A stretch of DNA of 64,000 nt, taken from NCBI GenBank assembly GCA_035221665.1, contig CM069145.1, forward strand, positions 14,942,001 to 15,006,000, written 5' to 3'. Numbering within the stretch: position 1 is the stretch's first letter; each line of letters begins with the position of its first letter. The stretch comes from Okamejei kenojei. Its lineage: Eukaryota. This document shows positions 23,951 to 60,084 of this stretch, in pieces. The notes under the pieces were generated by a model. The model made no database searches, was not told where the DNA came from, and was given only the letters and a program-made list of their open reading frames with translations. The position numbers were made by a program, and so were the translations under genes.

Positions 23951-25563
23951 TCTAGAGTCACTGACCGTGTTATCAGTGACTCCGATCGCGAACCCGACAT
24001 TCGCCAGCTCCCCGCTTCCGCGGTCGGACCAGGGTTTCCCCAAAGCCCTTAGCGGGTTCCCTCGTCGGACGTCGCGAACATCCTGCAAAAACCTCTGAGG
24101 TTCCTGCAGGAGACCTAAAACAGGTAAGGAATAGCACTTACCTGAAGTTTAGACTTACCGCTGGAGGAGCTCCGCTGTTTCACCGGTCGCCTGCATGAAT
24201 GCATCTGATGTAATGACGCACGTGCGGCTTGACGTGGTTCTTCACGTGGTCACTCACTTGACTCCGAAGTAAAATGAAAGATGTTTCTCTTCATATTGTA
24301 AAATTCTAAGAATTGGCAATGTTTGTTTTCTGGCCATTTTTGAATACCCTTTCGTGGGCTCGGTCAAGAGTGTTGGTTTAGTAGTTTGATATGGTAAATT
24401 ATGTCTTCAATAGGAAGGAAATGGAAGTCTAAATCTGAAAGAAATGGAAAAGAGGCCTGAGGACTCTGAGGACCTTTACAATGGACTTGGACAATTTAAC
24501 AGTGCTTCATACGAATACAGTATGTCATTGCCCTCTGCACTGCCAATCTGGATTTTGTTACGTTATTACAGGCCCATAAAATTGATATAATTTTCAATCC
24601 TTTCTTCACATTTCAGTGTCAAGGATTGTCCTTGTAGATGGCGCAAGATTATATGATTCAGATTTTGCTGGAACAAGCCATTTATTAGTTTGACTCATTC
24701 ATGCATTATTTAGTTCCAGGAACTTTCATCCACAAAATTGTTAGAAATGCGAGTGAAGGGAAAAGATTTAATTGGGAGATAAAAGTTGATAGCAAAATTT
24801 TAAAAAGATCTTGACACTTTGAAATCCTCTGATTATTTACAAAGACATAAAACTTTAATTATTGAATTTTTGGATTAAGAGATTTGATTGGAATTAATTA
24901 ACGGTTATATTCTTAGAAGAGTCATAATGTGGTTAATTATGTTCTATATCATTACTTCAGTAAAGGTTTAATACACCAATAAATCTTTTGTTTAATGAAT
25001 TCAAATCATATTGGTTTTGATATTGGTTTATTCTTGTTGTTTATGCCATGATTGAGTGAAAAACATTGAGTTTAAATTATTGAGTGAAAAACTGTTCTGT
25101 GTGCTATCCAGGCAAATTATACCATGCATAAGCACGTCAGGTTTGAATTCAGACCCATGACATTTTCAAGAGAATGTTGGCATGGTTGTCCTTGTACTTT
25201 TTCTCAGCAGGTTCAACATGTTTAATATCTGAGGACATATCCAGATCATCTTGATACTAGCTTGAACTCTTGCAAAATGGAGCTAAGAAATAAAGACTCT
25301 TGAAAGAATCAACTGCCATTCCTCACTTGCCTTCTGCAATGTTTCGTGCGGAGAATATGGTTAATGGCAGGATTTCCCGACTGTGATCATTGTCGCTAAT
25401 TTTGCTGAATGGAAAATGTTAGTCAAGGATTTGTCTACATTAATTTTGTCTACACTAATTCAGGAGTTTCAATAAATGTTTAATGCACTAATACATCACT
25501 GATTGATGAAAAATACGAGTTTACCAACTTTTAATCAATTTCACTGGGCCCCAAGTGAAAACG

Positions 25564-25700
25564 TCTTCTTCTTTTGTGTGGCGTGCACAGCCTAAAGTTG
25601 CTGGACAACTTGTTCTATTTGATCTTCCATTTGTGCACGTCGAGTTGATTGCATTAGTCGAAACAGGGCGGACCACGTGAAGGTTGCAATCTTCCACCCC
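25564..25700 (-). mobile_element. Vingi/Ingi-like short non-autonomous retroposon
   Basis: 3' end gtgcacgccacacaaaa(gaa)n; TSD aagtRaaaac at 25553-25562 and 25701-25710; 5' end resembles the Ingi/L1Tc Pr77 core ACC-N7-GGT. Confidence 0.7.
25647..25700 (-). ncRNA. HDV-like self-cleaving ribozyme (predicted)
   Basis: P1 GGGGUGG/CCGCCCU with G1-U wobble, P2 GAUUGCA/UGCAAUC, P3 ACC/GGU, L3 UUCACGU, UUCG-capped minimal P4, J4/2 CUAA. Confidence 0.75.
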
Positions 25701-25714
25701 AAGTAAAAACCAAG

Positions 25715-26150
25715 GTGCAGGTTAATCATAAAATTCTGTCCAACAAATTGGAACTGTGTCCAGCTACACAGTTGTGGGTATTGAATGAGGAGAGCAGGGA
25801 GGCGAGCACACAGCCTTGAAATGCCCCAGTGCTGATGGTTATTGTGGCAGAGGTTGTGTGGCCAACTTGTCCCGATTGTGTTCTGTTCTTGAGGAAGTTG
25901 AGGATCCAGTTGCAAAGGAATGCATGGATACCCAGTTCCCTGAGCTTGATAGCAGGTTTGGGGAACTATTTTAATTTTCCAAATGGTCCAGTGCAGGTTG
26001 GAGAACTAGAAGATGATCTATTGTGGCAGTAGGCAAATTGTAGTGGGTGCAGGCTCTTGCTGAGGTATGAGTTAATAAGCTCCATAACCAATATGCACCA
26101 TTACCAATCCTTCAAAGCACTTCATCACCACGGACATTATTGCCCCCGGT
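25715..26150 (-). mobile_element. Old Rex1/Babar RT fragment
   Basis: tttgcctactgccacaatagatca (FAY..NRS) and ggcatttcaaggctgtgtgctc (QGCVL) on the - strand. Confidence 0.6.
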
Positions 26151-26199
26151 GATGGGAAGATCAGCGCATCACTATTGTTTCAGTTTCAACACTTCAACA

Positions 26200-26490
26200 T
26201 GGTAGGACAGCGGTAGAGTTGCTGCCTTACAGCGCCAGGGACCCGGCTTCGATCCAGACGATGGCCGCTGTCTGTACAGTGTTTGTACAGTTGTGCGTTC
26301 TCCCCGTGACCTGCAGTGGTTTTCTCCGAGATCTTCCTCCCACACTCTAAAGACGTCCAGATTTGTAGGTTAATTGGCTTGGCATAAATATAAATTGTCC
26401 CTATCGTTAATATGAGGGGATCGCTGGTCTGTGCGGACTCGGTGTGCCAAAAGACCTGTTTTAGCACTGTATCTCTAAAGTAAACTAAAC
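26200..26490 (+). mobile_element. HE1-like SINE
   Basis: cagcggtagagttgctgccttacagcgccagggacccggcttcgatcc head; full body. Confidence 0.85.
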
Positions 26491-27065
26491 GAAATTTGCC
26501 AAAATGATTGAATATGTAAAATCAGCAATGGTTGAATGTGAAAAGTGCTTCATCGTTATTCATGTACCTTTGAAATCGTGAAATGCATTATTTTGCAAGA
26601 GATAAAAACCGCAATTCATTGTCAAATATATTGAAATAAAACCAAAAGACATGTTATGAGGAGTACATATTTCAATGAGTTGCCACTTGCACTTTCAAAA
26701 TGAGATTAAAAGTTTAGGTTTCATGTAGGGTGGATCTTAATTCAGCCTGAGGAGGTACTGTACCAGCACACCATGATGTACAGCATGGAACTCTTGCAGA
26801 AGCTTCAAAGAACACTCAGATTTGCATCTCTGATGTTGGCTTTTAAGAAGATCACACAAGAAAATTTCAGTCCAGTGGGTCAGTCCTGTGTGAAAAAAAT
26901 GGAAATTAATGCTACAGTTTGAATTCCTAACTGTTCAGGAAAGATCAGCATCCATCCTCCATGCTCATTTAAAATAGTTCATAGTGTATGCTTCATGTTT
27001 ATTGGATTTCCTCAACATAACATCTTTTTAAGTACATTTTTTAAATATTAGTTTTGAGGGAGACG

Positions 27066-57350: not shown

Positions 57351-58810
57351 TTTATTATGGACTCAAGATCCAGACAAGGGGCAACATTACATTACAAAAT
57401 GCATTGCATATCAAATATCATAAATATATATAAAATCATGGTAAATCACATTAAAACATCATAATTTATATATTTTTAAAAAAACCCACAATACTTAAGT
57501 TAAAAATCCAGAGTAAAAAAATGATCAATGTCGTACAACGAGACAACGATACCAGTGTCTTCACAACTGGGATTCGTAGCGTGTAGTGCTAACCCTTATG
57601 TTTGTCAAGGCCACAATAAGCACATTTTTAGAGTCATTAATCCTGCAAATGAATTTATACATGTGGTATCTTAGAATAGCTTCTAAAGTACTGACTCCTG
57701 CAGCCACAAACATATTACTGACACTACACCATCTTGGTTGCCTTAGCAGTGTTCTCATGGCATCATTATATGCAATCTTTAGTCTCTGCATACTTGTCTT
57801 TAAATAGTTCGACCACAGGTGCGCAGTGTAGAGGGGTGTGCAGTATGCTCTAAATAGCGACATCTTCACCACATCTGCACACGCACCAAATTTACGCGTG
57901 GATATTCGCCTGTACATACAGCATGCGTCGTTGCCTATAAATATCCTCATCATCTGTCATTTGTTCTGTAATAATATGCCCTAGATATTTTATCTTATTA
58001 CAGACACTAAGATCGTTGTCAGACAATTTAAAATCAGGATATTTTAGGCTTTTATCCTCTTTGGTTCTACAGACCAATACAGCACTCTTACTAGCATTAT
58101 ATTTAATGTCATGTTCCAAACCATACATGGAACATGCAGTAAGGAGCTGCTGGAGACCAGCGCTAGATGGACTAAAGACCACAAGATCATCTGCATACAT
58201 AATATGGTTCACTAAAATATTACCAATCACGCACCCAGTGTTACAGGCTTTCAATTGTTTAGACAGATCATCAATATATAGATTAAAAAGGACTGGGAAC
58301 AAAATTCCCCCTTGTCTAACACCATTGCTAACCCCAAATGGGGCTGAGACCCTATTGCCCCATTTTATTTGCATAGTCTGATGGGCATACCAGTAGGCCA
58401 GTATTCTCACAATGTATTTAGGCACCCCTCTTTGACGCATTTTACCAAACAGCTTTCTGTGATTAACACGGTCAAAGGCTTTGGAAGTATCAATAAAGCA
58501 CATAAGGATTGAAGAGTTTTTGCCTCTATATTTGTTTACAATCTCCTTTAGGGCATATATGCATAAGTCAGTGCCATGTTTAGCTTTAAAGCCAAACTGG
58601 TTATCTGTGGAGTTAACAAACTCATGTATTCTATCCAGCAGAACTCTTTCTAAGTCTTTTGACAATATGCTGGCTAAAGCTATAGGCCTGTAATTATTTA
58701 GACTGCCTACTTTATCCACTTTGTCCTTAATAACCGGCACTAACAGGACAGACAACATTGAGTCTGGTAACATGCCATGAATCATAAAGCCAGTAAAACA
58801 AATAGCTAGG
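57290..58810 (-). mobile_element. Young 5'-truncated LINE (RTE-X/Proto2-like, clade uncertain)
   Basis: RT ORFs 57892-58785 and 57561-57953; (att)n tail at 57290-57349. Confidence 0.85.
57561..58785 (-). pseudogene. Non-LTR reverse transcriptase with one frameshift
   Basis: NYRPIAL, QFGFK, SKAFDRVNH, GVRQGGIL, YADDL, KYLG; frame change near 57900. Confidence 0.85.
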
Positions 58811-60084
58811 ACAAACTACTAACACACTACTCTTCACCAAATCCTATATATTGTATATTGTATCTATTAGCTGGTTGATTCAAGAACCTGATGGTTGTAG
58901 GAAAGTAGCTGTTCAGGTGGTTTGAGACTTCAAGCTTCTACGCGTTCTGCCCGATGGTAGCAGTGGGAAGGGGTCATGACAAAGGAAAGCACTTGAATAT
59001 GGAAATATACAATGTGGAGGAGTTAAAGTAAAAGTCATTGATACATTGAGAGATTCGGGGAAGAAAAGGAAGATATTATGCTGCGATTAGACAGGATGAG
59101 ATGAAGAAGGGCAGACTAATATTCATGAATCACAGACATGGGCATTGGCCAAATGGCTAGTTTCCCTGCTGAATTTACAATTCTATTCTCTGACTTAATT
59201 AATGTTGGTATGTTTCTGCTCATCAAGACATTGATGGATGCACCTTTCATGAATAGCTGGAATGAGCACAATACATCTGAAAGGTCAAAACAATCCATGT
59301 GTAATGACTGCTGACACCTTTCAGCCACAGTATCACTGCTGATGGACCTCCACCTGGATGTGTCCAAGAAGCCTTTGTGTTCATTTTCTTTCCTTTGCAT
59401 GACTGTTCTGCAGAAGTGCTGCCATCTGTTGCCCAGTGATGGCCCCTTCGTCTGGATTTTCCAATCAAACCTTGTATTAATGGCAGTGAAAACATGATGT
59501 TGAATTAATATTATAAATCGATAGGGATTTTTTTCCATTACCGTTTAGTGGTAAATGCCTGGTATTATTCACATAAGAATTGAACATGGCTTAAAAATAA
59601 TTTCCTTGCTATGCCATTATCAGAATATCTCAATTGACTCTGCATATCGAGATTCTTTTCAAGGTGACCTTGCCCTCGATTTCATGTTACTTGCTTCAGG
59701 TGGCTGCAGTTAGTGGCAAGATTGTATATTAATCTTGTGGGGCTGAGGGATTTAATTTAAAATGCATAACCTAACCTCTGCAGGGAGTTGACAAAAGGCA
59801 GGTGTTGCTCTGTGCATTGAGGGGCATCTTCATCACCACTGATGCTGGACTGCATTATTAATTTTACATATCGAAAATCTATAGGGTGCAATTGATTGTG
59901 TTATTATAGGTGTAGGCAAGAGAATAGGCGTGAATAAAAGCAATGCAGTTTGTCTTCACAGTTTTGGAGCTCCTTGAGACGCAATTACTTTCAGAGGCTC
60001 ACCACAACATAGGCAATAAATTCAGAAAATGGAAGGCTAAATTCCTGTGTTTGTGAACTTGTGAAAGATCATCCCTTATAGAGT

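Follow-up and report, generated by a model that had tools for sequence, protein, structure and literature searches.

A short bipartite Vingi-type retroposon headed by a predicted minimal HDV-like ribozyme in the genome of Okamejei kenojei

Short retroposons that keep both ends of a LINE and open with an HDV-like ribozyme are already a known kind of element. NARTc, RIME and SIDER are two-ended derivatives of the trypanosomatid L1Tc/ingi LINEs and carry the LINE's 5' HDV-like ribozyme, with a one-pair P1.1; the L1Tc/ingi clade is described as the sister clade of Vingi (PMC3185411, PMC4035085). The R2 SIDEs of Drosophila are internal-deletion derivatives that retain the 5' ribozyme and the 3' end (PMC3414825), and the non-autonomous derivatives of Vingi LINEs, such as those of Vingi-1_EE (cited in PMC5786205), are bipartite internal deletions. 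HDV-like ribozymes have also been noted in RTEs and some SINEs (reviewed in PMC6765202). Minimal HDV-like and theta ribozymes are P4-less nested double pseudoknots in which the catalytic C is the first base of J4/2, and nearly 99% of the minimal HDV-like ribozymes come from Caudoviricetes phages, where they often lie beside tRNA genes (PMC10879173).

The element described here resembles each of these systems in part. It shares the two-ended build with the trypanosomatid elements, the R2 SIDEs and the Vingi derivatives, the one-pair P1.1 with NARTc, RIME and SIDER, and the predicted P4-less fold, with C first in J4/2, with the minimal ribozymes. Unlike NARTc, RIME and SIDER, it resides in an animal genome, has a Vingi-type parent and a (GAA)n tail, and begins with a predicted P4-less ribozyme of 54 nt, as against the 77-nt Pr77. 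R2 is specific to rDNA and uses a restriction-like endonuclease, whereas our element occupies dispersed sites with target-site duplications (TSDs) of 9-14 nt. Unlike the minimal ribozymes of phages, the predicted ribozyme here heads a multi-copy retroposon of an animal. The CPEB3 ribozyme is single-copy and intronic, with a full P4 and a one-pair P1.1. The element likewise has one pair in P1.1 and resembles CPEB3 in L3 and J4/2, but it has no full P4, and no Rfam match of the CPEB3 model to it was found.

The element lies on the minus strand at positions 25564-25700 of the window, the 64,000-nt stretch of O. kenojei DNA that was analysed and to which all positions refer. A sequence-only reading of the window had described a 137-bp element there, and its letters, coordinates and minus-strand start are as that reading gave them. 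It is a young retroposon. The two TSD copies, at 25701-25710 on its 5' side and 25553-25562 on its 3' side, match at 9/10 positions, and sequencing runs from two other organisms (X1 and X7) contain the empty site, in a contig that joins 25548 to 25697. The 148 nt skipped there equal the 137-nt element plus an 11-nt duplication. A genome search found 2,553 candidate copies, of which the 40 scored are 98-100% identical, and a single exact 23-nt seed with a restricting condition gave 1,280 genome matches; the element is also present in sequencing runs carrying seven organism labels. It belongs to subfamily A, whose copies diverge by 1.4% from the column majority outside CpG in a sample biased to top matches.

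We found no Pol III boxes in the element, in agreement with the sequence-only reading: the best A-box matches carry 2-3 mismatches, a B box at tRNA spacing is absent, and there is no tRNA gene within 24000-27000. Classical SINEs have a small-RNA-derived head with A and B boxes. Here the head is a LINE 5' UTR, and the dispersed copies with TSDs and the parent's tail are those of a SIDE-type, non-autonomous bipartite element. Lineage D, a rare deletion form (L146, L385, L393), retains a TTTT run of the LINE UTR that the abundant subfamilies lack, a feature that could be accidental or could hint at Pol III read-through. A 12-codon frame within the element was dismissed; its start ATG differs among copies (T/C at nt 72).

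The same genome holds a LINE of ~3 kb, family VA, that shares the element's first 71 nt and last ~40 nt. The 5' end of VA consists of the element's nt 1-71, then 35 nt, and then an ATG (nt 107) whose frame runs into the endonuclease. In the window the 5'-UTR-derived part (nt 1-71; 25630-25700, minus strand) is identical to the VA copy L396 at 67/71 positions. It is followed by a deletion junction with a short duplicated stretch (25609-25629, minus strand), and then by the LINE 3'-end-derived part (25564-25608, minus strand), which holds the last ORF codons, the TAG at 25592-25594 that is the stop codon of the VA ORF, the 3' UTR and the (GAA)n tail. Judged by these shared ends, the element is an internally deleted LINE of the SIDE/NARTc type and not a classical SINE, and its predicted ribozyme is a legacy of the LINE 5' UTR, not a SINE head in its own right. 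It had been taken for a minimal ribozyme-headed SINE, of which the retroposon and the HDV-like head stand, and the SINE gives way to a bipartite LINE deletion derivative. Different junctions mark subfamilies C, D and E/B/A, a pattern suggestive of three or more independent deletion events. Three of the short-element copies (L345, L323, L370) sit within or directly beside Vingi-type LINE copies.

The copies of VA are themselves worn. L394, of ~3.04 kb, has both ends between 8-nt duplications and broken frames, and no VA copy with an intact ORF was seen among those retrieved. A Vingi-type LINE with both ends in common, for which the sequence-only reading had proposed a search, is present. VA looks older than subfamily A (88% mean pairwise identity versus 1.4% non-CpG divergence). 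Family VB, at 98.2% the youngest family seen, has only the last bases in common with the element. The 5' ends of VA are often clipped, 6/29 starting at nt 1, and 17 of the 30 that we retrieved (L364-L391) sit in inverted orientation alongside a 3' piece, and in many of them the interior is largely gone; this proportion comes from a query selected for 5' ends and is not a genome-wide rate. It is as if a second primer had landed close to the RNA's 5' end.

The VA protein matches endonuclease and RT domains and not RNase H, and its nearest intact homolog is a protein of 1,019 aa with 69% identity. The RNase H family PF00075 is absent among the 120 matches listed, and two long fused gene models there carry other RNase H families. 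Vingi is defined as a compact single ORF with APE endonuclease and RT and without RNase H (PMC13708176), and VA has this domain arrangement. An RT tree, whose rows include no named Vingi or Ingi sequence, groups VA with three other families of the genome and ten outside rows in one clade (100/99), separate from the RTE, CR1 and Nimb rows. The clade names of the remaining rows are based on motifs and Pfam matches. VA was found with a degenerate RT motif that we take to be typical of Vingi; this motif has 392 matches in the genome across several families, VA being one of them. Together with the shared ends, these comparisons support a Vingi-type LINE of the same genome as the parent.

About eight Vingi-type families of different ages occur in the genome (L314-L343, L400-L419), and most of their visible 3' ends have (GAA)n, as do the tails of RTE and Nimb-like families of the same genome. 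An RTE family (found via DUF6451) and a Nimb-like family (found via PF14529) were both considered as the parent and rejected, since their (GAA)n tails are joined to other 3' ends. The Nimb-like LINE at L241 (G000:C2:28223500-28232000) combines an open ORF2 of 1,276 aa with a (GAA)n tail. Of the 21 matches to an RTE-shaped 3' pattern, most were, by inspection, deletion variants of our element. Deletion variants likewise dominated the returns of four exclusion patterns placed on the ends of the element; the parent escaped these, since VA either agrees with the element where letters were excluded or has a different seed. Within the window, decayed LINE fragments lie at 25760-26060 and 57895-58815, the second with an open RT frame of 307 aa (Pfam RVT_1). 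A Pfam search of 73 of the 115 window ORFs gave just four RT matches and no host gene.

Copies of the element begin at a precise position. Of 173 distinct 3' ends at the retrieved loci, 138 carry a head, and 127 of these copies begin at nt 1-2; when copies were chosen on the 3' end alone, 26/31 did. Such sharp ends indicate that upstream sequence is not routinely carried along, and copies extending 5' of G1, which the sequence-only reading had named as evidence against its model, are not the routine. In the 97 copies with a clear TSD, the duplication stops no more than 3 nt from G1 in 93 and at 0 or +1 in 68, and its length is 9-14 nt in 91, so that the predicted cleavage site does fall at the TSD boundary. 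HDV-like ribozymes cut 5' of the first P1 base, usually with a G1.U pair, and the G1.U36 pair and, indirectly, the TSD distances agree with this. Capped LINE RNA often leaves an extra G. G-only letters between the TSD and G1 occur in just 4/97 copies, so there is no clear cap signature. In contigs of two runs that we guessed to be RNA, the element is joined to varied upstream flanks, with 26 and 8 loose ends at 25701. These element-plus-flank contigs are uncleaved RNA or DNA, and we count them against release by a ribozyme.

For the first 54 nt (25647-25700, minus strand) we predict the fold of a minimal HDV-like ribozyme, with its cut between 25701 and 25700. P1 (GGGGUGG/CCGCCCU) has 7 bp, with wobbles at G1.U and U5.G, its 5' strand at 25694-25700 pairing with 25665-25671. 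After the AA of J1/2 comes the 5' strand of P2 (GAUUGCA/UGCAAUC), at 25685-25691, which forms 7 Watson-Crick pairs with 25647-25653. P3 (ACC/GGU) and L3 (UUCACGU) span 25672-25684, and C22 (25679) in this stretch pairs with G37 (25664) to give a P1.1 of one pair. Since G37 is used in P1.1, P4 can have at most one pair (U38-A43), and the ribozyme is essentially P4-less. The CUAA of J4/2 (25654-25657) opens with the predicted catalytic C44 at 25657, and its second position is U, G, A or C depending on the subfamily. Thus the nested double pseudoknot of P1, P2, P3 and P1.1 has all helices complete, the catalytic C opens J4/2 and is followed by N-A-A (C44-U-A-A), and L3 follows the consensus, as in HDV-like ribozymes. 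The P4 helix of these ribozymes is absent, which fits the minimal subtype (PMC10879173). The HDV-like fold proposed from the letters stands in P1, P2, P3, L3 and CUAA, while its UUCG-capped P4 shrinks to one pair or none.

A strict HDV descriptor matched this site alone in the 64-kb window, and none in 60 Markov-1 simulated windows. Rfam at gathering scores gave no matches, HDV-like models included. When E values up to 10 were allowed, HDV-F-prausnitzii (RF02682) spanned exactly 25647-25700 on the minus strand, scoring 16 bits where gathering requires 44 (E = 1.1), which is a weak independent hint at an HDV-like fold. The z-scores of the nested fold are unremarkable (0.73 and -0.04), as expected of a folding tool that cannot model pseudoknots. 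The C44xAA motif is intact in 30/30 top copies and in 27/31 copies chosen on the 3' end, and all six ribozyme features tested are intact in 24/30 and 11/31, respectively. A pattern of the head had no exact match in metagenome and viral contigs. Against cleavage we count the J1/2 of just 2 nt, the single-pair P1.1 and the competing pairings: the predicted nested fold lengthens P1 by A8-U29 and loses P3, and by inspection a pairing of G37-U38 with A43-C44 could hide the catalytic C. In constructs of drz-Agam-2-1, a J1/2 of 0 nt is inactive and one of 1 nt nearly inactive (PMC4908430).

The fold covaries across families. We aligned five heads without gaps (the element, VA, VB, the metagenome locus L490 and an RTE family), which are few rows, picked by us for sharing one register; 54/55 cells pair, and 8/11 pairs, P1.1 among them, change on both sides. 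None of 500 shuffles reaches the observed pairing, and slid partners pair at 42-53%. Both-sided changes affect 7/7 pairs of P1, all 7 pairs of P2 form in each of the five heads, and in the RTE head the C-G of P1.1 becomes G-C (G22-C37). L443 and L425, with different loop lengths, were left out. Within the element's own family no pair is changed on both sides, so that the covariation sought as a check on the fold is present between families and absent inside this one. Head differences among subfamilies fall at nt 8 in J1/2, at nt 45 in J4/2, where all four bases occur, and at nt 32, where a U-A pair of P1 becomes U.G and so stays paired, while the body of the element is reshuffled between them.

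Similar heads occur on other LINEs. VB, a young full-length family of the same genome, opens with a textbook HDV-like head in the element's register; the family, represented by L358 and L359 (G000:C1, ~44.014-44.017 Mb and 131.400-131.404 Mb), is 98.2% identical pairwise and has a two-pair P1.1 and a short P4. Among 17 Vingi-type loci examined in metagenomes, L443 and L490 have such heads perfectly and L425 nearly so. Thirteen of the 17 gave no descriptor match (several have <250 nt upstream), and the descriptor had no match on the reverse strands or inside the ORFs of these loci. A weak match at L440, 511 nt away, was rejected. The metagenome loci L424 and L431 escaped the descriptor but show HDV-like heads by eye; in one of them a long insert lies near L3, and the other has a P1 of 6 pairs. 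Among 20 further Vingi-type loci (L400-L419), most of them 5'-truncated, there was no ribozyme head and one unrelated opposite-strand match. The RTE family is full-length (L263-L292), and 28/30 of its copies start with C at nt 1. Its HDV-like head (e.g. L261:2120-2270) is in the element's register and identical to it at 17/19 nt over nt 10-28, with a long P4, an A.A mismatch in P3 and a less canonical P2/P3 junction. A lone copy with inserts in L3 and after P1 was seen at L097:1485-1641, and no family was found for it. Family VD (5' ends L363, L404) has a different head with a long insert, and the bases at its 3' terminus complement the putative 3' strand of its P2.

Beyond the ribozyme, the body of the element had been described as a hairpin followed by (GAA)n. 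The stem is there, and its two arms come from opposite ends of the LINE: the 5' arm, CGUGCACA (25632-25639, minus strand), from the 5' UTR and the 3' arm, UGUGCACG (25582-25589, minus strand), from the 3' UTR, so that in a full LINE the pairing would span 3 kb. The 5' arm is exact in 15/29 VA heads, and subfamily B extends the stem to 10 pairs. With the geometry of VA, in which the arm begins 2-8 nt after P2 and its partner ends just before a terminal ATACG, VB forms 7 pairs (shuffle p 0.00035) and L490 forms 13 (p 5e-5), with differing letters. L425 did not pass this test (p 0.2), and neither did L396, the only VA copy put to it, whose arm bears a substitution. By eye alone, VD, L444 and L445 show no clear stem. 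Based on these comparisons, the outer hairpin is probably an inherited pairing of the 5' and 3' ends of the LINE that is also found in VB and L490. The stem and the inverted 5' ends of VA would fit an RNA whose ends are held together.

We think it likely that the element, an internally deleted copy of a Vingi-type LINE, is cut out of read-through host transcripts by the predicted HDV-like ribozyme of nt 1-54 and is then copied by Vingi protein. The element would be transcribed as part of a host RNA, and Mg-dependent cleavage 5' of G1, presumably by C44, would leave a compact uncapped RNA with its 5' and 3' UTR arms paired. The Vingi reverse transcriptase would recognise the 3' end and the (GAA)n tail, and target-primed reverse transcription would insert a copy of the RNA between TSDs of 9-14 nt. 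Alternatively, the head could be an internal promoter as well as a ribozyme, like Pr77/L1TcRz, so that transcription would start at G1 or slightly upstream of it, and the ribozyme would merely trim the product. Such a head has been demonstrated for L1Tc and NARTc in the sister clade (PMC3185411), and thousands of candidate copies imply efficient germline transcription, but the element has no Pol III boxes and the extra G's are too rare (4/97) for a clear signature; we consider this reading unlikely.

Less probable still is that the double pseudoknot is mainly a protective, protein-binding 5' structure that cleaves slowly or never, the 5' end being set by an exonuclease or an RT stop. Its short J1/2, one-pair P1.1 and competing folds, as well as the clipped 5' ends of the parent (6/29 starting at nt 1), would suit such a role, and the authors of work on R2 propose that structure, not necessarily activity, stabilises templates (PMC11331408). 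However, the catalytic C, the AA of J4/2 and G1.U are kept across distant families in which the helices have changed, and structure alone would not need C44, whose retention counts against a purely structural role. That the element derives from or is driven by an RTE, or that the fold is a chance pattern, we regard as very improbable. The RTE family does end in (GAA)n, and its head keeps the element's register, with the identity over nt 10-28 given above, but its 3' end is unrelated (30 RTE loci), its P1 differs at 6/7 5'-strand positions, and a Vingi-type LINE matches both ends of the element, so the RTE origin is largely refuted; chance is opposed by the lack of any descriptor match in the 60 simulated windows.

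In the literature that we searched, patents and Repbase being outside its scope, so that an earlier record is possible, we found no link between Vingi and HDV-like or other ribozymes, and in PMC13708176 all mentions of ribozymes concern R2 or HDV constructs. Neither a P4-less ribozyme in an animal genome nor such an end-to-end stem was found in the papers searched, and a search of the cartilaginous-fish literature gave no relevant match. With the heads predicted here, Vingi would join the LINE clades that carry 5' HDV-like ribozymes, and the P4-less form, reported almost only from phages, would be placed in thousands of candidate copies in an animal genome.

The cleavage that we favour could be part of something more general. 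A 5' HDV-like ribozyme may free Vingi RNAs as a class, and a stem between the bases just after the ribozyme and those just before a terminal A(U/C)ACG may close them. Natural selection would then have favoured the 137-nt element as a minimal template for Vingi, and the copies, in their thousands, would be dispersed phage-style minimal ribozymes able to cut host pre-mRNA. We put this forward tentatively, as a possibility that we rather doubt. The finding bears on a question raised in PMC5786205, namely why bipartite elements are made by RTE, Ingi, Vingi and R2 alone. If the wider reading is true, ends held together would explain both the two-ended short derivatives of Vingi and the 17/30 inverted 5' ends of the parent.
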